The notes under the pieces were generated by a model. The model had not been told where the DNA came from. It saw only the letters and a list, made by a program, of their open reading frames with translations, and did no database searches. Source: Escherichia phage Mt1B1_P10. From it: DNA of 45,359 bases. Shown piece by piece: positions 618-13,100 of the stretch. Location of the stretch: sequence record MT496971.1. One strand, written 5' to 3'. The position numbers and the translations under genes were made by a program. Each line of letters starts with the position of its first letter. Within the stretch, counting starts at the first letter, position 1.

Positions 618-3053
618 TTAACTGATTTTATTAGCGGCATACATCTCCTCTAATTTATCAAGACGATGGCGAGTGTAGGCAGCCTCTAGGATTAGAACTT
701 CACTATATCTCACACCGTACCTACCTTCTTCGAAGGACACAATTCCATACTTAATGGCATCCAATCCTTCAGCTTCAAAAGCAGCTACAATATCCTGAGC
801 CAAGACACCGAAGTGTATGCTATCAAGATTCCTCTCTGCTTCACTATTCAAACCATACTGTTTAAAACCAACTCTACTCCAAGCCTTTAACACCTTGGTA
901 TTAATACTAGAGATGCCGTACTTGTGGTCAGCATCTGAAGTGGTAACGGGGTCACTGCCTAGGTAGATGGTAGTGAATCGGTTACTAGGTCCACCAGCAG
1001 CAAACTGGTTATCTACAGCAGGCATGATTGGTGCACCTTGGAATAGGTGCTCATTTCCGTTATAAGTGATACGATTAGCATTACTTGAATTAGAGCCGTG
1101 CAAAGTTATCTGTGCACCTGAAGATGACGAAGTCTTTTCTCCACCACAAATAATCAAACGTTGACCAGTTGGGTTGTCCTTTGGAACAGACTTGCCAATA
1201 AAGCCGTACTCACCCTCCATCTGCACTTCAGACCGTATATTGGCACTTGTGCTTGCTTTAAGTGTTAAGTGTCCAACTTTAGCATCCTCTGTAGCAATGT
1301 CATCTGAGAAATACAAAGGTGCAGGGATATTTCGTACTCCATCAGTACCCATGAAAGTGGGTATAGCCTGACCAGGAGTTGCACCATATGTGAACTTACG
1401 AGATACACGATTGTCATTTGCAATCTGCATCTTATAGCAGTATATATCAGTAGGGTGTCCGTGCCCTTTAAATGGGTCTTTATCTTTGTTGTCACCATAA
1501 GTCATTGGGTTGAAATGGTTTTCACCACCAAAGATATAGTAAATGTAGCTATCTTTAACTACCACCGAACCTACGCCTACACTTGAGTTAACAATGTCAC
1601 CCTGATAGATTTGGTCTGTGATGTTAACCCATTCAATATCATCTGCATTCCACTTGTTTACATTCAATCGTGCATAGAAGGTACGAGGATAAGATGCCTT
1701 GTAACGATCATCTGGTGCACCTGCTTCCCATTCATTTTCTGCACGTTCTGAACCAAACATAATAAGGTCATCTCCTACTTTAGCAAAAGGTAAGGTAGTA
1801 TGATGAACATTATGTGGAAATCTTAGTGACTCCCAAGTCTGACCTATATCTCTACTACGATGCAAAGAGCTTCCAAGTCTGTCCCCACGAGTACCACGAG
1901 TGATAAGGTATAACACACCGTCATAGTACTTGATGCATGGCTCTGACGCATCCGGTTCATACTCAGATGGTATCTGACGACGAACATAATTAGATGGGCT
2001 ATTGAAAGCATCAGGGAAGTAGAAAAGCCCAACTTCTCGTGGAGCTACATCGCCTTGATGATAGCCCATAACAAAGCCATTGTTATCAATAGTAGCAAAG
2101 CTATGCACCTCTGTGACACGAGGGATTAGACCAAGATCTGTCTTACGCCATGGAGACTTATGGAAAGAAGTACCCATGTGCCAACTCTTTCCAGCGTTAT
2201 TCAAATCTGAAGTCTGCTGGTTAGGTGTAAGAACCGTGAAGTTGTCCTTATCTATTACTGCTGCTACAGTCATATCACCTGATACGCCTGTTACCGCAGA
2301 ATTAGAGAAGTTAACAAAATCACCCACGAATAGTCCGTGATCTGGTACATGTATTGTTGCATATCGCTGATTTGCAGCTTTAGTGATACCACCAGTAAGA
2401 TGCAGGCTACGAGACATAGGGCGGTCCCACAATGCACAATTGGTTAGTGCGTTCTTGGCTAAAGTACGTGTTTCAATCATGGCAAACAGACGGTTGCGAC
2501 ATACACCCATGCTCATACAATGATAGTTCACTGTAGGGTAATCTGGATGTAGATCAGTTAACCACTCTGGAGTAGACCATGTTTGACCATCGTCACCAGA
2601 TTTAACCCATGATACATGCAGACGACTAACACCATGACGGTCGCTACCCATGTAAGGTGCATATATCACATTCTCATATACAAACGCTTTGTCTTGAGGC
2701 CAAGCATTGTAATAAGGGTTGTCCGTGATTTTATAGAGTTCACCATTGATAAAACCTTTACTCACATAGTAAAGAGGTTGACCTGCTAAACGTTCCCATA
2801 CGAAGCGGGTGTTATAGAATCGCTCCATATCAGGTAAAGATGATACTTTGTAAGTAGCACCAGCACCGTCAATTCTCTTACCTGAAGCCATCGCTGCATT
2901 TACTGCATCTTGGTCGTTTGTCTTACCATCACCTTTGGCTCCAAAGTCTTTAAGCGATACAACCTCGGTGAGCTTGTCATCCAAGTTACGCCAGATTGCA
3001 CCTGCTATTTTACTCTTGAATTTAACTAATGAAGAACCTAGTCTTTGAATCAT
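618..3053 (-). CDS. Tailspike: endosialidase (endo-N-acetylneuraminidase), 811 aa
   Basis: Two sialidase Asp-boxes (SGDDGQTW, SRDIGQTW); C-terminal region resembling the auto-cleaving intramolecular chaperone domain of endosialidases; N-terminal KDFGAKGDG motif. Start moved to ATG at 3053 (SD AAGGAGG); the track start at 3197 is an upstream extension. Confidence 0.8.
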   Translation of the reverse strand: MIQRLGSSLVKFKSKIAGAIWRNLDDKLTEVVSLKDFGAKGDGKTNDQDAVNAAMASGKRIDGAGATYKVSSLPDMERFYNTRFVWERLAGQPLYYVSKGFINGELYKITDNPYYNAWPQDKAFVYENVIYAPYMGSDRHGVSRLHVSWVKSGDDGQTWSTPEWLTDLHPDYPTVNYHCMSMGVCRNRLFAMIETRTLAKNALTNCALWDRPMSRSLHLTGGITKAANQRYATIHVPDHGLFVGDFVNFSNSAVTGVSGDMTVAAVIDKDNFTVLTPNQQTSDLNNAGKSWHMGTSFHKSPWRKTDLGLIPRVTEVHSFATIDNNGFVMGYHQGDVAPREVGLFYFPDAFNSPSNYVRRQIPSEYEPDASEPCIKYYDGVLYLITRGTRGDRLGSSLHRSRDIGQTWESLRFPHNVHHTTLPFAKVGDDLIMFGSERAENEWEAGAPDDRYKASYPRTFYARLNVNKWNADDIEWVNITDQIYQGDIVNSSVGVGSVVVKDSYIYYIFGGENHFNPMTYGDNKDKDPFKGHGHPTDIYCYKMQIANDNRVSRKFTYGATPGQAIPTFMGTDGVRNIPAPLYFSDDIATEDAKVGHLTLKASTSANIRSEVQMEGEYGFIGKSVPKDNPTGQRLIICGGEKTSSSSGAQITLHGSNSSNANRITYNGNEHLFQGAPIMPAVDNQFAAGGPSNRFTTIYLGSDPVTTSDADHKYGISSINTKVLKAWSRVGFKQYGLNSEAERNLDSIHFGVLAQDIVAAFEAEGLDAIKYGIVSFEEGRYGVRYSEVLILEAAYTRHRLDKLEEMYAANKIS

Positions 3054-3104
3054 GTAACCTCCTTTTTCTGAAAGGCTACCATCATGATAACCTTTAAGAA
3101 AAGT

Positions 3105-3132
3105 TGCGCGAAAAGCAGTGCTTACGCACTGC
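3105..3132 (-). terminator. Terminator-like hairpin between the two tailspike genes
   Basis: Minus-strand RNA GCAGUGC-GUAA-GCACUGC (7-bp stem, 4-nt loop) followed by UUUUCGCGCAACUUUUCUU, immediately after the upstream tailspike stop and before the endosialidase SD. Confidence 0.45.
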
Positions 3133-3138
3133 CTGTGA

Positions 3139-4578
3139 TTACCTACGAATTGCCTGTACGTGCAATATTCCGTTAAGTGTAACACTACTACCTGCACTTA
3201 GGTTTTTAATGTAAACATTACAACTATTATCACCTTGTGGCTTCAGAATAATAGCACATGATTGAACATCGAAAGTAGAACCATATGTAAGAACATCACC
3301 TTTATTTGGTTTATAGTCACCAACTAATTGTATAGTTCCTGCATTTAAATCTGCATTAGGTTCTAATGTTGTGTTTACAACTAGTGTCCCTTTAGCTACA
3401 ACACCATTATTACTGCACCAACCTACAGTAAGTGATGGGTTAAATACGGTATTGTCATATTCAATGAGACTATCTCCAACAGCAGCCATAGATGCACCAC
3501 CCTTAGCACCGACCCATGCCTTAAGTGCTGTAGTTCCTAGCTTAATTCTAGACTCACCAGAGGCCATAATTGGGTAGGTGAAGATACTAGTAGATTTAAG
3601 GTTCTCACCGAAGAAGATTCCATCTACATTGACCCTAGAGCTGTCGTGCGCTCTAAGAAAGTATGCTTCTTCACTTCCAGATGCTGGATCAACAACGACA
3701 TTATGCGAGTGTAAGGCATAACCGTTGATTGTTACTGTAGAATCTCCATGAATAAATATAGAAGCATTACCGCTATGATGGATCTCACAATTCTCACTAT
3801 ACATGCCATTTATCACAAGACCTTTGCAGTTTGTAATATCAAATGCCTGTAAACCTTGGATATCATTACATCCATCCATGGCGCAGTTATTCATTGTCAT
3901 ATTATAAACATTAGCCAGTCTATATGCTTGATAGCAATTAAGCGCATAGCATGTATCCATAAGGACTGTAGTTCCAGTGAACTTACGGAACCCCTCCCAG
4001 CAATTGATAGCAACCACATTGCGCATTGAGTATTGGAATGCTCCTGTTTCATCATGCAAACCAAAGTATGCACCACGGACAATGATGTTCTCCATGATAA
4101 ATTGAGAAGGCCATGCTTGTTGGTCGGCATCACCTAGATCTATGCCTTTTCTGCCTGCATAGTTATCTGGTTTGTTCTCTCCATAATCTATGAAGAACCC
4201 ACCTAAATAACCACCCATAGAGTAACCTGCGCTTTCATCATATTTCCATGCAGGCTCATTGTGTGAAGTTGCAAGGATTGTACCAAGACTAGGGACAGGT
4301 GCTATGCCGCCACCTTTTATAACCTGATTCTTAAAATACAAAGTCTCACTAATTATATAAATACCTACAGGGATATACACGTTCTTACCAGAAGCAAGTG
4401 CAGCTTTGAATGCAGCAGTATCATCGGCAGAGCCATCACCCTTAGCACCAAAATCTTTAACACTAACAAAGTAGTTATCAGCGTGTAAGGTGTTATCCCA
4501 TGCTTGTTTTAGATAATCTGACAGCAATCCACCTTCATGTATAATACCAGTTGTGACAGGTTTGGTAATTTTAGCCAT
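3139..4578 (-). CDS. Second tailspike / putative capsule depolymerase (pectate-lyase-like beta-helix), 479 aa
   Basis: N-terminal VSVKDFGAKGDGSADDTAAFKAALASGKNVYIPVGIY typical of pectate-lyase-fold depolymerases; Gly/Asn/Ser-rich beta-helix-like repeats. Start moved to ATG at 4578 (SD AGGAGG). Confidence 0.75.
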   Translation of the reverse strand: MAKITKPVTTGIIHEGGLLSDYLKQAWDNTLHADNYFVSVKDFGAKGDGSADDTAAFKAALASGKNVYIPVGIYIISETLYFKNQVIKGGGIAPVPSLGTILATSHNEPAWKYDESAGYSMGGYLGGFFIDYGENKPDNYAGRKGIDLGDADQQAWPSQFIMENIIVRGAYFGLHDETGAFQYSMRNVVAINCWEGFRKFTGTTVLMDTCYALNCYQAYRLANVYNMTMNNCAMDGCNDIQGLQAFDITNCKGLVINGMYSENCEIHHSGNASIFIHGDSTVTINGYALHSHNVVVDPASGSEEAYFLRAHDSSRVNVDGIFFGENLKSTSIFTYPIMASGESRIKLGTTALKAWVGAKGGASMAAVGDSLIEYDNTVFNPSLTVGWCSNNGVVAKGTLVVNTTLEPNADLNAGTIQLVGDYKPNKGDVLTYGSTFDVQSCAIILKPQGDNSCNVYIKNLSAGSSVTLNGILHVQAIRR

Positions 4579-4662
4579 TAGACCTCCTATTACTTCCCAA
4601 CCCTCCCTATGAAGATTGGCTAGTAATAGGCCGCTCAAAAGAACGGCACTATCTTATCTCTT

Positions 4663-4709: not shown

Positions 4710-4907
4710 TTAATTATACCCGCGTTCTAGCGAAAGAATATACAAACCTAATTTTGTAGCGTCATGCTTACTAAAGCAGACCTTATCGTCCACCTCGTAA
4801 ACTGCCGTCAGCGTCGGCCCCAGAGGTTTCACCATTGCTTTCTCTGGTAACGCCTGCTGACACCCGGAAGTGGTCAGCGAACCAATCAGCAGGATTGTCG
4901 CTAGCAT
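4710..4907 (-). CDS. Candidate o-spanin (Rz1-like lipoprotein), 65 aa
   Basis: MLATILLIGSLTTSGCQQ... signal-like N-terminus with a Cys in lipobox-like context; starts inside the upstream overlapping ORF in another frame and extends beyond it (overlapped spanin architecture). Weak SD. Confidence 0.4.
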   Translation of the reverse strand: MLATILLIGSLTTSGCQQALPEKAMVKPLGPTLTAVYEVDDKVCFSKHDATKLGLYILSLERGYN

Positions 4908-5004
4908 GATTCGCTTCACTTTGTGCCTCCTTCTCTTCCTTCTTCTTCTTAGTGGCAAGCAGCAGGCCAATAAGACCTGCCACCACCTCAAGCACCTTAT
5001 TCAC
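4783..5004 (-). CDS. Candidate i-spanin (Rz-like), about 67-73 aa
   Basis: GTG start(s); N-terminal hydrophobic segment VLEVVAGLIGLLLA then a charged region; contains the embedded lipoprotein ORF. Shorter than typical i-spanins. Confidence 0.35.
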   Translation of the reverse strand: MNKVLEVVAGLIGLLLATKKKKEEKEAQSEANHASDNPADWFADHFRVSAGVTRESNGETSGADADGSLRGGR

Positions 5005-5146
5005 AGGTGATTACTTGGCATACCACGTCAGTGACGGAACCTTCCGTACCTTCACCTAGGTCTACGCCAAGACCTACAGAAACAAGAGCAATCACCAGTG
5101 CAACCAGTGCACCTACTACTTTCTTAGACTTAAACAGCTTTTTCAT
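4997..5146 (-). CDS. Small single-pass membrane protein, 49 aa (below track cutoff)
   Basis: ATG at 5146 with SD AAGGGAGA; MKKLFKSKKVVGALVALVIALVSVGLGVDLGEGTEGSVTDVVCQVITCE. Lies between the endolysin and the spanin candidates. Confidence 0.4.
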   Translation of the reverse strand: MKKLFKSKKVVGALVALVIALVSVGLGVDLGEGTEGSVTDVVCQVITCE

Positions 5147-5254
5147 TGCATCTCCCTTTCCATTGAGCTAACAAGTCAGAGTAATTCTTCCAGTCATCAT
5201 AGTTGCCACACTCGGCAGCTTGAGCAACCATGCGCTCGCACCATTCAATACATC

Positions 5255-5599
5255 TTACCATCGTGCACATCCATCTCTTACATCAATGTGGGTGAAATTA
5301 GGATAAGACCCAATGCCATATTTATTGGGGTAGCGTGCTGTAAGATAAGACCATACACGGTAAGGTGTAATGCCTTGTACCTTAATGTCAGCAGCCTTAC
5401 CAGTAAGATGCATGGAGTTCTTAGCTCCACCTACGTTGGCATTGTGCTTAGCACAGCGATGACCAGAGGTAATAACCACAGGGGCACCGAAATACTCACG
5501 CACATCTGTGACCACCTGTAGTAGCTCAGCATCAACTGTGGATGTACCGCACCCACAACGGCAAGCAAACTCTTTACGCTTGAAGTGTCTATTAAGCAT
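5255..5599 (-). CDS. Endolysin, peptidase M15-like zinc peptidase, 114 aa
   Basis: Motifs KEFACRCGCG, ITSGHRC...HNANVGGAKNSMHLTGKAADI resemble the M15 (D-Ala-D-Ala carboxypeptidase-like) fold. Start taken at the ATG with a GAGG SD (5599); the first ATG at 5611 is also possible. Confidence 0.8.
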   Translation of the reverse strand: MLNRHFKRKEFACRCGCGTSTVDAELLQVVTDVREYFGAPVVITSGHRCAKHNANVGGAKNSMHLTGKAADIKVQGITPYRVWSYLTARYPNKYGIGSYPNFTHIDVRDGCARW

Positions 5600-5620
5600 C
5601 ACCGACCTCATCTGTTACAA

Positions 5621-5908
5621 TTAAGCTACAGGGGTTACAGGTGTCTCCTCCATAGTGGTTGCATCCCAAGGGTCAGTTGGTTCACTACCACGTGCAATAG
5701 CGATGTACAAGGAGTTGTCTGCTTTCTCTACAGCAACCATGGAGCCTTTCTGTTTGCCAGATAAGTGTTTAATGTTGATAGGGTGATCTTTCTTCTTAAG
5801 GTCTGCTTCAGCAACAATAGGCAAAGGGATTGCCGTTGCAGTGGTTTGTACAGTTTTTACTCGAAAAGCTTGACCAGTAACAGTACCTGCGTTTCCATAA
5901 TTAGACAT
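5621..5908 (-). CDS. Hypothetical late protein, 95 aa; paralog of the next gene
   Basis: ATG with SD GAGGAG; shares MSN... N-terminus and an SGKQKG(S/A)MV...IAIA core with the 5921-6199 product. Confidence 0.6.
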   Translation of the reverse strand: MSNYGNAGTVTGQAFRVKTVQTTATAIPLPIVAEADLKKKDHPINIKHLSGKQKGSMVAVEKADNSLYIAIARGSEPTDPWDATTMEETPVTPVA

Positions 5909-5920
5909 GTAATTCTCCTC

Positions 5921-6199
5921 TTAAGCTGGGGTAATAGTTGTGACCGCTAATAACGTGGTCAGCCAATTGGAATCTTCTTTGCCATCAACTGCGATAGCAA
6001 TAACCAGTGTATCATGTGTATCAAGACACACCATGGCTCCTTTCTGCTTACCTGATTTGGTGGCATCATTAATAACATCACCTTTCTTCTCAACAGTGTC
6101 CTCGTAAACTACAGGAAGCATCAGGGCTTCACTCACAGGTTGTATCTGCTTACGAGCAGACTTACCGGTAAGGGGTTGTGTACTATAACTATTAGACAT
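5921..6199 (-). CDS. Hypothetical late protein, 92 aa; paralog of 5621-5908
   Basis: Start moved to ATG at 6199 (SD AGGAGA); the track start at 6259 is an upstream extension. Confidence 0.6.
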   Translation of the reverse strand: MSNSYSTQPLTGKSARKQIQPVSEALMLPVVYEDTVEKKGDVINDATKSGKQKGAMVCLDTHDTLVIAIAVDGKEDSNWLTTLLAVTTITPA

Positions 6200-6337
6200 T
6201 CTCTCTCCTATTGTGTAAGTATAGTAAGGAAGTAAGGAATAGGGTGTACAGGAGTACACCCATACTAAGGCATACCTATATAACCTAGGTTAACCTATAT
6301 TATCCTTGTTATTTCTCTTATTATCTGGGCCTTCCTT

Positions 6338-6355
6338 CTATAGTGTCCAGTAATT
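6338..6355 (-). promoter_or_regulatory. Phage RNAP promoter
   Basis: Minus-strand AATTACTGGACACTATAGAAGG overlapping the large terminase stop; upstream of the paralog pair and lysis genes. Confidence 0.7.
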
Positions 6356-8252
6356 AATAAGTCCTTGAAATCCTTGCAGAAAGTGTATTTCGATTTGCCG
6401 ATTTACTCCTGTAATTCTGACCGTACACTCTTTGCTGCATAGCCACGGAAGTGTTGGTTACTCTTCGCTCAGTGCCATAATCTCCATAGAGCATCGCCCT
6501 ACGGAGGTGAGGTGTGTTCATAGCATGGATGTAATCGCGCATCTCCTGCGCTCTGAGGCGATTAATCCGTGTAACCTCATCATAGTCTATCTGAGAAGTT
6601 AATTGCCGTATAGCGCCATACAGAGCGTCTAAGCGGTCATCGTGCCGGAGGCTGTTCTTCTCAATCGTGATGTTCGACATTTGATTGAAAAGGCTGTAGG
6701 ACATGCGTAGCTCAAGCGGATAGTTCTGTACCGAATCAAAGTCCGATTTCACCATCTCTGCGTTAAAGATGAGCCTGTGGGCCGCCATGAGTGGCTCTAG
6801 CGTCTCAATGATACGCAACTCTTTCTGTCCGGTGGCGTAATCCTCCTCCAGAGTCACAGGCCATTCTCGTTCAAAGTAAGGCTTAATTACCGCCTCAAAC
6901 GCGCCATGACCAAAGTTCTTTTCAATGAATACCTCTTTAACACCAGCCTGCTTTGCGGCCTGCACAATGCGATTCAGGGACGATTCGCGGTATCCGCCTG
7001 GCACGCCGAAGCACTGATACACGTAAATGAATGTGCCGTGCAGGAAGACAATCGCTACACCCGTTTCATCTCCATTCTTACCGCCGCCCGCTGGGTCGAT
7101 ATACATAATCTTGCGGGTAACAGCACCCCATTCATATGGGCGAGCCACAGGTCGATACATGAAGTCTGTAGGTTTATTGCCATACTTCGGTGCATCTCCA
7201 ATGATGTTGATGGAGTCGTTGCTCCACGTAGGCATCACAGGGACTTCCTCAGTACCGAATGAAGTGAAGATGAGATTGTTTAGACGAAGTGGGTATCTGT
7301 CAGCATCCATCATGCGAGTGTTAAGCATGAACTGAAGCTGGAACTTAGCCGCACCCTGAGAGATTTCCTTCTCAATCAGCACTTCATCGTCGTACATTTC
7401 AGGTGCGCAAGGTGCACCACTGTTACCGTCCAACCCATAACCAGAGCGAAGTGCGGGGTTGTCCTTCATATCCTGCACAATCATAGGTGCAAGGAAGTCA
7501 CCATAGCATTGCTCCTGCTCCACTGAAGGATAACGTGCAGTCCAGATACGAACAGAGTAACCACGAGCAGGTAAGTTATTGTAGATAGAGTTTACGTTCT
7601 GAGGTGTCCCAAGGTAGATGATGTCACCAAATTGGTTAATAGATTCAAATTCCTTGGTCAACTCCTCAAGCAATGCACGGCCTGCTGCTGTACGAGCATT
7701 CTGCATCGATTCAACGTCATCCGCTAGAATAATATCAGCACGAGCACCCTGCATACCTGCTTCGATTGAGTAACAGGATACAGAGGGGGACTTATCGCTA
7801 CCACGTAGGGTGTAATGAATCTCAAATGCTTTAACGGATGCACGGTCCCCTGCGTAGATATCCGGCAGCATAAACTCAAGGAAGTCTAGGCCACGGAAGA
7901 TTTTCACCACCCAACCAGCGATTTCCTCTGCTCGCTTAGCGTTTTGGGATACAACCATGATACGCTTATGCGGTTCGTGGATAATACGAAATACCGTATA
8001 GATTGCTGATAGTGTTGTCTTAGCGATACCACGAGGCGCTTCGATGAGGCGATACTTATGCCCGTAGAATAGGAACTTCAAGATATCAGCCTGCATACGA
8101 ATCAGATGAGGGTTGCCTGCAATCAAGTTATGGATAACTGTATCTGCAAAGAGAAGCAAACCTTCCGCTGTATATTTAAAAGTGTCTTGTAGTTCTTTAA
8201 GGTTTTCCCACCGCTTTAATGCCTCTGCCTGTGATTCTCTAGCCTTTGCCAT
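6354..8252 (-). CDS. Terminase large subunit (T7 gp19-like), 632 aa
   Basis: Walker-A-like RGIAKTT, LQFMLN motif and overall similarity to T7 gp19 as recalled. Start moved to ATG at 8252 (SD AAGGAG), which overlaps the HNH stop. Confidence 0.9.
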   Translation of the reverse strand: MAKARESQAEALKRWENLKELQDTFKYTAEGLLLFADTVIHNLIAGNPHLIRMQADILKFLFYGHKYRLIEAPRGIAKTTLSAIYTVFRIIHEPHKRIMVVSQNAKRAEEIAGWVVKIFRGLDFLEFMLPDIYAGDRASVKAFEIHYTLRGSDKSPSVSCYSIEAGMQGARADIILADDVESMQNARTAAGRALLEELTKEFESINQFGDIIYLGTPQNVNSIYNNLPARGYSVRIWTARYPSVEQEQCYGDFLAPMIVQDMKDNPALRSGYGLDGNSGAPCAPEMYDDEVLIEKEISQGAAKFQLQFMLNTRMMDADRYPLRLNNLIFTSFGTEEVPVMPTWSNDSINIIGDAPKYGNKPTDFMYRPVARPYEWGAVTRKIMYIDPAGGGKNGDETGVAIVFLHGTFIYVYQCFGVPGGYRESSLNRIVQAAKQAGVKEVFIEKNFGHGAFEAVIKPYFEREWPVTLEEDYATGQKELRIIETLEPLMAAHRLIFNAEMVKSDFDSVQNYPLELRMSYSLFNQMSNITIEKNSLRHDDRLDALYGAIRQLTSQIDYDEVTRINRLRAQEMRDYIHAMNTPHLRRAMLYGDYGTERRVTNTSVAMQQRVYGQNYRSKSANRNTLSARISRTY

Positions 8253-8682
8253 TTCGCCACTCCTTAAAGAGAGAAGAAACTCTTGGTTCACTTTTACCAG
8301 TAAGTCTAGCGGTTTCTGCTACACCCTTACCTTGCAAGAAGCAATCTTTTAATCTTGCTAAATAGCTATTTAAGGCACTCCTATCATTTCCATTGCATTT
8401 TAAATAGTTATTCTCGCTTCTTGTTACCCACTCCAAGTTGCTAACATCATTGTTGTGCTTATCGCCGTCTTTGTGGTTTACTTCATTATTAGTTTTAGGT
8501 AAATACTTATAAGCCACTAATTGATGAACATAGACATTACGCCATTTACCTTCTTTATTTTTAATTTTAACTGCTAAATAACCCCTACCCGCCTTGAATG
8601 GTTTGAGAGGGGTGCCACCCTTTGAAAGGATGACACCAGAAGGTAAGATGGTATAACCTTGAGATTCACACCATCTATGCAT
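8239..8682 (-). CDS. HNH homing endonuclease (NUMOD4-like N-terminus, HNH core, C-terminal HTH-like), 147 aa
   Basis: VNHKDGDKHNNDVSNLEW and HQLVAY motifs; paralog of the HNH at 38540-38896. ATG at 8682 uses the last two codons (GAGGAG) of the upstream gene as its SD; its 3' end overlaps the terminase start. Confidence 0.8.
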   Translation of the reverse strand: MHRWCESQGYTILPSGVILSKGGTPLKPFKAGRGYLAVKIKNKEGKWRNVYVHQLVAYKYLPKTNNEVNHKDGDKHNNDVSNLEWVTRSENNYLKCNGNDRSALNSYLARLKDCFLQGKGVAETARLTGKSEPRVSSLFKEWRNGKG

Positions 8683-8683
8683 A

Positions 8684-8983
8684 TCACTCCTCTTTTGTAA
8701 ACTGAATTATCTTACCACTGGATGCCTCTCGGATAGCCTTGAGGCGCTTAGATAACTTGGACTCTTCCTGCTGTGCAGCAGGTGTAGCGGTAATACCATT
8801 ATCAAGAACCCACTTACACATAGCTCCAATGTCTTTACCAGACACTAAATGCAATGCTGCATCAGGATCCCCTTCTATAGTGTCCAGTATTGCCTGTGCT
8901 TTCTTATTAAAGATTCTGGTAATAGCACCATGCAGAATGCCAACCTCATCCTCTGTAGCTGCATGTTTATTGTGTACGCTCAC
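8684..8983 (-). CDS. Putative terminase small subunit (gp18 position), about 99 aa
   Basis: Assigned by synteny (holin, this gene, large terminase). Only plausible in-frame start is GTG at 8983 with SD GGAGGG; the track's TTG start at 9028 is unlikely. No motif-level confirmation. Confidence 0.45.
   Translation of the reverse strand: MSVHNKHAATEDEVGILHGAITRIFNKKAQAILDTIEGDPDAALHLVSGKDIGAMCKWVLDNGITATPAAQQEESKLSKRLKAIREASSGKIIQFTKEE
8875..8892 (-). promoter_or_regulatory. Promoter-like sequence inside the small-terminase ORF
   Basis: Minus-strand CAATACTGGACACTATAGAAGGGG: core from -12 to +4 matches the consensus, upstream AT-rich part differs. About 190 nt upstream of the HNH start. Confidence 0.45.
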
Positions 8984-9161
8984 GCTTCTCCCTCCAAATC
9001 TTGAACTTATTATAAAACCAGTCCCCAATTTGCAACACGGTATAAATGAATGTTGCTATTAACACCCAATTATCCCAACTGATACCGAGGAAGTACCCAC
9101 CTGATACGAGTGCAGGTGGCGCAAGCTTCACACCACTATCTACCAGTTCGGAGTTAATCAT
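8967..9161 (-). CDS. Holin, class II (T7 gp17.5-like), 64 aa
   Basis: ATG with SD AAGGAGG; ...WVLIATFIYTVLQIGDWFYNKFKIWREKRE parallels T7 gp17.5 as recalled. Confidence 0.75.
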   Translation of the reverse strand: MINSELVDSGVKLAPPALVSGGYFLGISWDNWVLIATFIYTVLQIGDWFYNKFKIWREKRERTQ

Positions 9162-9170
9162 CCCACCTCC

Positions 9171-10133
9171 TTATGCTGTGATAATCTTAGCAGTCATCCG
9201 GCACTCTGGTACTCTTTCTGAGAAAGTAACAATGACACCGTCTACCTGATAAGCAAGTTTAGGTTGTAATAATCCATCAAGGTAGACCTCAATGTACTTA
9301 AATGCAGAGCCAATCTGTACTACTTGTTGGCCTTCTACTAAGTCAAAGTTCAACTCTAACTGAATATTAGGTTCAGATGTAGCCACACGACTGCCAATCA
9401 GCACATACACCTCTGTGCCAGCCACAAGTGGCTCTGCGAAAGTGATAGTGTTGCTGCTTATAGAGTATGCGCCTACGATTTGGTGTTGCAAGACCCCATT
9501 AAGGAAAACTAGTGCATCTTGAAATTCATAAGGAGGTTTTACGGAAACCTCACCTCCTTGGGCGATCGTGTACCAAGGGATAGTTCTGTGCGCAATACCA
9601 GAAGTCATACCTGCTTTAAGGCCAGCAATCTCAATATCCTGTTTGGTGTTCCAATCTGTATGCTTCTTGTCAATGGCATCAAGCTGCCCTTTATTTACTG
9701 CATCTCCCGGATTTGTGCCATCAGCCAAATCAGTAATCTTATTGCCGCCCCAGCTTACATTCTGTTTAATGAAGTACCCTTCTGGATAAAACCCGTCAAG
9801 TAACTCCTGTGTAATCTCCAGTATATGAATGAAAGAACCATTTAAAGACTTCATATCCAAGGTAACACCACGGTCAAACTCAGCGTATGGATATTCCTTT
9901 TGTACTTCCCTTCGAATACGGAACTTCAAACCTGCAACTGGTGCTACATCAAAAGTAATCTGGTGCGTGCCAGTTAGTTGCCAGCCAGATGTAACCTCAA
10001 TCCAAGTGTTACCTTGAAGAGATTCCACTATCACATCTGAGGCACGAAGATAACCTTTATCCCTACCAGCAAAGCTAAAGGGATAGGTTACTTGCGTACC
10101 GTTGGCTATATGTTCTGTGAAAGTATAACTCAT
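9171..10133 (-). CDS. Tail fiber-like adaptor (T7 gp17 N-terminal-domain-like), 320 aa
   Basis: Position after the internal virion proteins and before the holin; too short to be a fiber itself; likely docks the two tailspikes. Start is ATG at 10133, overlapping the upstream stop (ATGA). Confidence 0.65.
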   Translation of the reverse strand: MSYTFTEHIANGTQVTYPFSFAGRDKGYLRASDVIVESLQGNTWIEVTSGWQLTGTHQITFDVAPVAGLKFRIRREVQKEYPYAEFDRGVTLDMKSLNGSFIHILEITQELLDGFYPEGYFIKQNVSWGGNKITDLADGTNPGDAVNKGQLDAIDKKHTDWNTKQDIEIAGLKAGMTSGIAHRTIPWYTIAQGGEVSVKPPYEFQDALVFLNGVLQHQIVGAYSISSNTITFAEPLVAGTEVYVLIGSRVATSEPNIQLELNFDLVEGQQVVQIGSAFKYIEVYLDGLLQPKLAYQVDGVIVTFSERVPECRMTAKIITA

Positions 10134-13100
10134 CAATCCTCCAGTTCATCTAAGCCATAACGCAATGCGTTCTGGATTCCTATTACATTAGTTAGAGGCA
10201 CTAAGCGCAAAGCCCTACGTGCCACATCTACACCTTCTGTATCACCCTCTGCATATTTAGTTATAGAATCTGCTAAACGATATGCATCTTGACCAACACC
10301 TACTAGTGGTATTTGGTCTATCAAACCCTTAGTCTGAAAGCCAGCCTCATAACGGGATTGTACTAACTCAGAAGGGAGAACACCTAGGCCTCCTAAGAAG
10401 TCTCCACCTAAGCTAAACACAGCAGTTGTACTCATCATACCCATAGCACCAAAAGCCAACCCTTTAGGGGATAGTTTCTCTTCCAGATATTCATCTTGGT
10501 CTTCTCGTCCAATAGAGTTCACATAAGCTTTCGCTGCATACACTATTGAACCTAAAGCGAAACCATAGGCTGTCTTCTTAGCAAGACCAATCTTATCGTG
10601 GCGAATGCCTCGACCAAATTGCTTCTCACCAGATACCAAAGAGAAAGACTTAAGCTGTGCAAAAGTTTTACCAAGCGCTTTGTTCATCCAGATTCCTTCA
10701 TCACCAATGAAGTTACGTTGGATAATTAGACCTGACTTACGACGAATAGCATTAGCTAAAGTTTCACCCATGGCATAAGGCATTGTATCAAATCCAAGCA
10801 AGCCAGAACCTTTAGAGTTAGCATCATAGTGCTTCTGTAGGTTAGTCATGAACTCCTGAGTAAGACCAAGTTCCTCCAATTTCTTCTGAGGAATAACCTT
10901 CTTGCCTTCAAGGTGGTCAATGAAAGACAAAGCTATTTGCCTATTGGTCATTCGCTCCAGAGAACCCTGTGCCATGCGGAAGAGTGATAGGTTGGTCTGA
11001 GCACGACGTATTGAGTTCATGGATTGGTCAAAGTGAGCCATCATACCTTTTACTGTGGTTACATCACCAAACTCATCTGGACGTGCACCCTTAGTTGTTA
11101 GCCAGTTATCCTCACCAATGTAACCTACCATCCTCTCTACTTCTGCCAAGTTCTTATCTCGGAAGAAGCCATCACCACTCCGCAAAGCCTTAGATGTAAA
11201 GCGGAATTGCTTACCTAAAGCTAGGGTGGTTGCAGCAATACCAAACTCGCCCATGAAGTTAGCAAGTTCACCTAGCTGTGCGAACCCCATCTGGCCTAAG
11301 CGAAGTACACCTGTAATGTCACGACCACGACGCATCATTTTATTAGACAAAGTCTGTGGGTCTGCATCGATAGATTTACCCATAATTAAGCGAAGCCCTT
11401 CTCGCATCTGACGGATTTCTTCATCAACAGCCAGACCTGCTGCTTCATCTTTCTCTTTCAATTTAAGTCTCTTCTTTAACTCTTCAATCTTCTCTTGTGC
11501 CTTCTTGTAATCAGGCTCTGATTGACGAATCTTAGCAGACTCCGCTTCAAATTGTGCGTGTGCTTTTGTATCTTTAGCTGCATTTCGTGCATTTCGCTCT
11601 ACAAGGTCAATTGCACTAAGTGCAGCCTGATAGGTAGAGAAACCTTGACGAGCCAAGGCAGCACCACCTGCCGCTTCCTTCATGTAGTTATCTGTTAACT
11701 CTTCCACGTTAGTGTTCATAAAGTCACGCATACGAATGCCATTGTACTCTTGAGTAACATCTAAGCCTAAACTCATCTTAGCTCGGTTAGAGATATTATC
11801 TCTGGTTTCTTTATTATCCAGAGCTTCTACCATCTTTTCAATCTCTTCATCACTAAAGCCTGCTTTGCGCATGAGTGCTTCATATTCTGCTTTGGTTTGA
11901 CCAGACATAGCCTTTTCAAAGCTAAGCTGTCCGGTCAAGGTGGCATCAGCAACGCGGTTTACTTGTGCACGTGCAATATCATCAGCCACTTCCTTTGGAA
12001 TCTTACGAGAACCATTCTGGTATGCACGAGAGAATAGCTCAATGATGTCCTCTTTATCGTGCATACCTAATTGACGACGAGCCTTCATACTGTCAAAAAT
12101 ATCAGGCATGTACTTATCATCTGCTTTAACCTTTTCAAACCCAGCTTCACCAGAGCGTTGACGTAATGCTAATGCTTCACGATACATAGCTTGCTGCCCC
12201 TCTGCTGCCATACGGATAGACTTAGGCGTAGACTCATCCATACCGATGCGTACAGCTTCCCATACCTTCTCATTGTATTGCTGCACATAGTGAGAGTTAG
12301 TATGACCTGCAACCGGATTGATATTATTCTCTTTGAGCCATAAATCGAACCCATCGTTGAAACGATTCATATCAGCAGATTTCAGACGGTTCAAGTTAGT
12401 ATTCTGCATGAGACTAGCCGATGCCTTCTGTGCACCTAAGCCTTGCGGGGACTCAAACAGGCGAGCACCAAGACCGCGTACACTTGCATCCTGAGAGGAA
12501 TGTACGACAGTACCAAGGGCAGACAGAGTTCCGGCCCAGCGGCGAGGGGTCATGTCAATAGCGTTCCCTTCCCTCTGCAATGTTTTCAGCAAGTCTTCAC
12601 CTTTACTAGATATATCAAATACGCCCTCAGTGAGTACCTCTTCACCCTTAACACGCATCGCACCTATACTGTCATCGGCAACGGCACGAACATAGCGGTC
12701 CCCTGCGTCTGCACTGCGCACAACACTCGCAGCCCTGTCATCCCCTTGCTCGCTGAGCTTAGTGGCCCTACCACGCGCTACAGCGCCAATAACGCCACCC
12801 ATAGCCATACCGGAGCCTAGTGCTACCATAATGTCATCTAAATCACGAGTCATGTCGCCTTGTACTAACACGGATTCAATAGCGGCATTACTCACGCCAG
12901 CGGCGATAGCGCCACGCACGGCACGACCTACGAGGCCGACTTTGGCTGCACCGCCAGTTGGGATAGAGGCAACCCAACCCACTGGGTCAAGCACAGCAGC
13001 GCCAATCGTTGCCACAGAGCCAGCCCAGCCAGCCTGCGCAATACGTTTATTACGCTCAAGGTCTTCATCAGCGTTCTGAATACGGAAGTTTAATTCATCC

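Follow-up and report, generated by a model that had tools for sequence, protein, structure and literature searches.

Paralogous late proteins gp41 and gp42 of a K1E-like phage as a candidate trimeric anchor module on the virion surface

Here we propose that gp41 and gp42, two small paralogous late proteins of Escherichia phage Mt1B1_P10 (sequence record MT496971.1, 45,359 nt, analysed whole and referred to as the window), act as an anchor module that forms trimers on the virion surface, probably on the capsid, and that this phage would build from two bare paralogous subunits. We put the probability of this reading at roughly 0.55, and within it we infer trimer formation by gp41 and gp42, their stoichiometry, a capsid rather than a tail location, and their function. 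Each protein would consist of a conserved N-terminal arm of ~30 residues (TG...K...P), disordered when modelled alone, followed by a small beta-barrel of ~60 residues in which an SGKxxG(A/S)MV loop is invariant and a Trp conserved, with (I/V)TP as the C-terminal motif. Three such domains would pack as a compact (pseudo-)trimer whose three positions, depending on the autographivirus, may be filled from a single gene, from two or three paralogues, or from a single chain in which three domains are fused. The module would serve as an anchor, with the third subunit or the single-gene version of relatives bearing an outward Ig domain or a trimeric Sf6-type knob. Late expression of gp41 and gp42 in the window phage would come, as for the lysis genes, from a dedicated phage promoter, and the two proteins would then join completed particles, helping to stabilise them and/or to shape their surface properties.

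The gene pair itself is already known from phage K1E (gp41/gp42). The picture of the family as separate genes, one to three in number, or as a fused pseudo-trimer, with plug-in Ig and knob domains and no solved relative, appears to be new to the literature searched. A capsid anchor whose C-terminus is free, should the module prove to be one, would offer a natural display site for the engineering of K1-specific and Klebsiella phages; relatives already use it to display Ig and knob domains. The series from split to fused pseudo-trimers would also be a clean natural example of the passage from homo-oligomers to hetero-oligomers to single chains.

The gene pair, its orthologues and its promoter

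A complete Vectrevirus genome (K1E/K1-5 group; Autographiviridae, Molineuxvirinae) makes up the window, in reverse-complement orientation, and a 1.2-kb query around the locus aligns to K1E-like phages at 92-97 % identity and to K1-5 at 81 %. On the minus strand, the large terminase gene (TerL; T7-type, PF22530; 6354..8291) is followed by a 154-nt intergenic region, the gp41-type gene (type A, the first paralogue; 5921..6199, ATG start, 92 aa plus stop), a 12-nt spacer, the gp42-type gene (type B, the second paralogue; 5621..5908, ATG start, 95 aa plus stop), a Peptidase_M15_3 endolysin (5255..5611) whose start lies 9 nt from the gp42 stop codon, the lysis ORFs and finally the tailspikes. The ribosome binding site of gp41 reads AGGAGAGAGA (6200..6209, minus strand); that of gp42, GAGGAG (5915..5920, minus strand), lies right behind the gp41 stop codon inside the 12-nt spacer.

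The two proteins align over their full length by BLASTP with 36 identities in 93 positions (39 %, E 7e-16), a similarity that is far beyond chance and extends past the core. A reading made earlier from the sequence alone had noted a shared MSN N-terminus and a shared SGKQKG(S/A)MV core and had called for a pairwise alignment; both shared elements stand, and the alignment is significant. The core corresponds to SGKQKGAMV at residues 49-57 of gp41 (6029..6055, minus strand) and to SGKQKGSMV at residues 50-58 of gp42 (5735..5761, minus strand). The further statement that the two differ in their termini was only partly right: an N-terminal MSN..TG..K motif and a C-terminal W...(I/V)TP motif are common to both.

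Compared with K1E and K1-5, dN/dS is 0.20-0.48 for gp41 and 0.27-0.36 for gp42. Both genes are thus under purifying selection, in agreement with the suggestion that they are true paralogues held by selection. The duplication itself is not a recent event in this genome, since gp41-type and gp42-type proteins are separately orthologous across Vectrevirus, SP6, Kp7 and PP1. In a neighbour-joining tree, gp41 of the window clusters with Kp7 gp45, SP6 gp42 and PP1_043, and gp42 of the window with Kp7 gp46, SP6 gp43 and PP1_045. A third type, comprising Kp7 gp47 and SP6 gp44, has no counterpart in the window by the tree or by searches of the whole window with two profiles against its six-frame translations. 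The duplication is thus ancient, and the window phage has a reduced set of two genes. Its closest known equivalents are direct orthologues, namely gp41/gp42 of K1E (locus DNA 92 % identical) and gp41/gp42 of K1-5 (locus tags EPKV1_gp44/gp45; locus DNA 81 % identical). Both phages have the same order of TerL, promoter, gp41, gp42 and endolysin, with no essential difference from the window.

The pair had been described as lying under its own promoter between terminase and endolysin, and a promoter of the expected kind is indeed found there. A consensus match predicts an SP6/K1E-type phage RNA polymerase promoter, TTATTAATTACTGGACACTATAGAAGGAAGG (6328..6358, minus strand), whose core GGACACTATAGAAGG is an exact 15-mer at 6348..6334 on the minus strand, directly 3′ of the terminase stop. 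The core occurs at 12 sites on the minus strand and at 13 on both strands, against a chance expectation of 1.16 for both strands. K1E, K1-5, SP6, Kp7 and PP1 all have it in this position, and it follows the TerL stop in six genera. The predicted promoter would drive gp41-gp42 and presumably the lysis genes too. That the two are small late proteins is in keeping with these late genes behind their own promoter, and they are probably structural.

Between promoter and gp41 lies a leader of ~139 nt (6200-6338, minus strand), whose overall fold is no more stable than that of shuffled sequences (z -0.39). Inside it, a scan for terminator-like structures located a G+C-rich hairpin, GGGTGTAC-TCCT-GTACACCC (6242..6261, minus strand), which recurs at this position in K1E, K1-5, SP6, Kp7 and PP1, where 6 pairs show base changes on both sides; upstream of the hairpin is a conserved CCTAGG...AGGTA.GCCTTAG element. 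The hairpin may act as an RNase III site, stabilise the mRNA or end transcription coming from upstream.

One domain family in separate and fused copies

Both proteins match phrog_2725 (E 3e-40 for gp41 and 2e-46 for gp42), and both RefSeq and PHROG 2725 give them the product name "acetyl-CoA acetyltransferase". That they are acetyl-CoA acetyltransferases, that is thiolases, deserves practically no credence. Only the inherited product name speaks for it, and the genome paper of UAB_Phi78 gives the label as "putative", without supporting data. Neither protein matches a thiolase or any other entry of Pfam or NCBIfam, and 86 diverse family members searched against Pfam returned no family apart from one unrelated chance hit (E 0.005); the domain searches thus already refute the name. 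Thiolases have about 390 residues, against 92 and 95 aa here, and the predicted fold is a small beta-barrel. Because Pfam and NCBIfam hits are absent and the proteins are shorter than 100 aa, we conclude that the acetyltransferase name is spurious for this family and reject a thiolase identity. The label has spread to more than 100 records of SP6/K1E-like phages (e.g. NC_007637, NC_008152, AY288927) as well as to PHROG 2725. Fixing the name removes a false "auxiliary metabolic gene" from phage-therapy dossiers, with more than 100 SP6/K1E-like therapeutic phage genomes affected.

Close homologues number 87 for gp41 (89-97 aa) and 94 for gp42. Read from close homologues of both types, the invariant positions in gp42 numbering are M1, T11-G12, K18, P30, S50-G51-K52-Q53, M57, A72, W81 and P93. 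The most conserved element of the family is SGKQKG(A/S)MV, in which S, G, K and Q are invariant across 56 sequences; 86 distant members all keep the K, and conservation of S, G and G reaches 90 % or more. Most of the fused-protein domains examined have the motif as well, now and then in a substituted form such as AGK or SNK.

When 1.84 billion representatives were searched with a profile, 210 relatives emerged at E <= 1e-3, the best of which gave 148 representatives at 50 % identity. Among these 148, 106 consist of one domain (18 of them with a C-terminal extension) and ~42 are chains of 260-300 aa, in which two copies were detected in 21 and three in 21. The two-copy long chains contain a ~90-aa stretch without a detected copy, which suggests a divergent third copy, and a few long chains have an extra C-terminal domain. 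Clean doublets are almost absent among the 148. The near-absence of doublets, the three-gene loci and the three-domain fusions together point, at the level of sequence, to a preference for three domains. Viral contigs scanned with the fused protein P0181 yielded no relative, and a third, word-index search returned only four fused proteins.

A place directly downstream of the T7-type TerL is shared by the window, K1E, K1-5, SP6, PP1, Kp7, PM93, F4M1D, Kpp-61, ECBP5, Reminis and the contigs with fused genes; in these metagenomic contigs of 44-45 kb, the fused three-domain gene lies directly behind a T7-type TerL, which is the same locus. ECBP5 has one copy, and Reminis has one plus a knob-bearing member. 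Two copies are found in K1E, K1-5, PM93, Kpp-61, most IMG/VR vectreviruses and the window, and three in PP1, Kp7, F4M1D, SP6 (the third truncated) and six IMG/VR loci.

In these six loci (L018, L021, L025, L026, L032 and L033, at ~3750-4500), the third gene, missing from the window, encodes ~236-250 aa that comprise a family N-domain of the TGQR type and a ~150-aa C-terminal domain (phrog_17779) without a Pfam match; their gp42-type protein is 55-82 % identical to that of the window. SP6 gp44 (81 aa; L002 2735-3170) is covered by the profile at positions 9-60 only, lacks the W...TP end and is followed by a 55-aa ORF (gp45); it looks like a decaying or split third paralogue. Downstream of the fused gene in one contig (L005, ERZ27260067:k141_13829, 8855-9456), two overlapping frames have weak family matches (E 4e-5 and 2e-7), one of which covers a called 113-aa gene. 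This genome may hold a fourth domain copy and, given the weak extra match, "exactly three" is not absolute.

Several relatives carry additional domains. A PF16532 knob (trimeric, Sf6-type) is attached to the single-domain members P0257, P0320 and Reminis gp54, and the Ig domain of Kp7 gp47 and P0267 finds its homologues in the Ig domain of pb10, a decoration protein of T5 (E 6e-17), and in Hoc-like PHROGs; domains of both kinds are typical of proteins on virion surfaces. Relatives bear these display domains facing outward, and we would therefore expect the shared N-terminal domain to behave as an anchor. RB43 ORF128w matches a knob-bearing member over 92 % of its length but lacks the family domain, and the family was therefore not extended to T4-like phages.

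Virion association and the proposed trimer

Experimental evidence on homologues comes solely from the Klebsiella phage Kp7. According to the Kp7 preprint, gp45, gp46 and gp47 were identified by mass spectrometry from gel bands of purified virions and named minor capsid proteins; Kp9 and Kp11, T7-like and KP34-like phages, are without these proteins. All three match the gp41/gp42 profile in hmmsearch, with E 2e-24 for gp45, 8e-22 for gp46 and 6e-15 for the N-domain of gp47, and in GenBank they are the three genes between TerL and endolysin, gp47 being annotated "with Ig-domain". Kp7 and the window thus share the domain family, the locus and the subfamily (Molineuxvirinae), gp45 being of the gp41 type and gp46 of the gp42 type. 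Kp7 differs in having a third paralogue with a C-terminal Ig domain, of which the window has none, and its proteins are 42-47 % identical to those of the window.

The capsid of Kp7 has been solved. PDB entry 7y3t is its asymmetric unit, matching the full 363 aa of Kp7 gp35 with 796 bits, and it contains seven major-capsid chains only; the capsid location of gp45-47 therefore rests on annotation, the basis of which is unpublished. The label "capsid" may rest on analogy with Ig domains. The Kp7 depositors (L004) annotate four minor capsid proteins (gp32 and gp45-47), and 7y3t has the major capsid protein only. Both the capsid (7y3t) and a fibre (7xyc) of Kp7 are solved, and we found no paper describing either. 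No family member turned up in the PDB when it was searched by sequence with two profiles, one narrow (A1) and one broad (A4), and searches of the literature on virion proteomics or cryo-EM of K1E, K1-5, SP6, Vectrevirus and decoration proteins of Molineuxvirinae yielded the Kp7 preprint alone. The major capsid protein of the window matches 7y3t with E 3.5e-178. Because the major capsid proteins of the two phages are very close, the target bound by the Kp7 proteins is likely to be conserved in the window phage.

Could gp41 and gp42 instead be late proteins without a structural role, such as a helper of assembly or packaging, a regulator of lysis that is co-transcribed with the endolysin, or an anti-defence factor, with the Kp7 detection explained by carry-over? 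The promoter shared with the lysis cassette would fit such a role, no structure shows the family in a particle, and gp41 has a faint GroES-like match. However, carry-over would have to account for three different paralogues recovered from discrete gel bands of purified Kp7 virions, and Ig and knob display domains make sense only on the outside of a particle. The family is moreover kept beside other lysis genes: Reminis has a transglycosylase endolysin, and in ECBP5 an unannotated gene of 185 aa takes that place. Any anti-defence signal is absent for both proteins, a PADLOC scan of which gave nothing usable. We hence consider a non-structural role quite improbable. The GroES-like match is sub-threshold in NCBIfam (E 0.08; 13 bits against a cut-off of 122), and a GroES co-chaperonin was rejected, the fold search having given no support.

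Structure prediction is consistent with the anchor module proposed above. When gp42 is modelled alone by AlphaFold2 with 56 sequences, the overall pLDDT is 70.6, with residues 1-15 below 50, low values up to about residue 30 and ~80 for the beta domain. The low-confidence N-terminus fits an arm that would be ordered only in the assembly. The fused protein P0181, modelled with 37 sequences, reaches a pLDDT of 90.3 and a pTM of 0.86, and its model repeats a strand-helix-helix-strand-strand-strand pattern three times. Such a high pTM for a three-domain chain indicates that the modelled domains are held in a fixed, compact arrangement, which we read as a pseudo-trimer; we infer the three-fold packing from pTM rather than from coordinates. 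Knob-bearing members must homotrimerise, and the paralogues could therefore form separate homotrimers, not only a heterotrimer. Structural similarity to solved decoration proteins, including gpD, Soc, Dec and the N-domain of pb10, was looked for and not found.

Known decoration proteins offer partial parallels. Phage lambda gpD is a trimeric capsid cement or decoration protein of ~100 aa, made late and added dispensably to a T=7 shell of the HK97 fold; by analogy, gp41 and gp42 would share with it the proposed trimer and an N-terminal arm that is disordered off the particle. T5 pb10 and T4 Hoc follow the same logic as Kp7 gp47 and P0267, an N-terminal anchor with an outward Ig domain. The anchor domains of pb10 and of the family are, however, unrelated; only the Ig part aligns, and the window proteins lack an Ig domain. 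With its trimeric capsid base, its stalk and its distal knob, the phi29 head fibre gp8.5 resembles the knob-bearing members (P0257, Reminis gp54), but the window proteins have neither stalk nor knob.

More tentatively, and with a good deal more doubt than belief, the family could be regarded as a hitherto unrecognised, structurally new capsid-decoration "socket" in SP6-like and other autographiviruses, a pseudo-three-fold anchor that takes plugged-on display domains. Evolution might have built the socket from a single gene, from two or three paralogues that diverged, or as a trimer fused into one chain, and an Ig domain, a TNF-like knob or other domains would be plugged onto it. Diverged subunits could ensure exactly one display domain per site, or could fit the non-equivalent quasi-three-fold sites of a T=7 shell.

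Tailspikes, tail location and neighbouring genes

It had been suggested that the two proteins are partner-specific adaptors or chaperones for the two tailspikes of this phage. A comparison of relatives does not bear this out: the copy number (one, two, three or one fused three-domain gene) is independent of the tailspike number. Two copies accompany a single tailspike in K1E (one functional tailspike) and Kpp-61 and two tailspikes in K1-5 and the window, while three copies accompany one tailspike in PP1 and F4M1D (one tailspike gene in the region examined) and two in Kp7 and SP6. With the two numbers uncoupled in this way, the adaptor idea is unsupported. The domains known for these roles lie in other genes of the window. 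The endosialidase tailspike (618..3197, minus strand) has its own intramolecular chaperone domain (PF13884), and the known adaptor, with a T7-tail N-domain (PF03906), is encoded by a different gene (9171..10136, minus strand). Neither gp41 nor gp42 shows similarity to the PF03906 adaptor domain or to the PF13884 chaperone.

A broader version would make the module tail-associated, an anchor that docks on the tail or adaptor complex and possibly serves as a socket for side fibres or tailspikes. Family fusions to a tail-needle-type knob are compatible with this, and in the comparison of Kp7, Kp9 and Kp11 the family and the SP6-type tail adaptor are found together. In the Ralstonia phage Reminis the knob-bearing member is encoded right behind the tailspike gene, and a tail location would therefore also fit. 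BFVD matches of E 2e-3 to 4e-2 fall on proteins annotated as pectate lyase or SGNH hydrolase. Set against these points are the independence of copy number and tailspike number, the assignment of the adaptor role in this group to the gp37-type protein with the T7-tail N-domain, and the chaperone that the endosialidase brings with it. The Kp7 depositors, with fibre and capsid structures solved, list gp45-47 with the capsid and not with the tail proteins. On balance a tail location seems unlikely to us, and the capsid remains the probable site of the proposed anchor.

The two tailspikes of the window (618-4638, minus strand) are K1-5-like: a 499-aa pectate-lyase-like beta-helix protein (3139..4638, minus strand) and the endosialidase, whose chaperone domain is of the Peptidase_S74 type. 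The endosialidase ORF as listed, of 859 aa, overlaps the upstream gene by 59 nt, and its true start is therefore probably further downstream.

The large terminase gene is intact in the window (6354-8291, minus strand). In K1E (L001 5218-7862) and Klebsiella phage Kpp-61 (L012 3101-5745), TerL is interrupted at the same site by a homing-endonuclease gene. On the other side of the pair, the lysis cassette (4710-5270, minus strand) is made of very small ORFs. One of them encodes a 49-aa protein with one hydrophobic segment (5146..4997). Another (within 4991..4710), which overlaps a different frame (5004..4783), contains a lipobox-like LTTSGC, which suggests that its product is an o-spanin.
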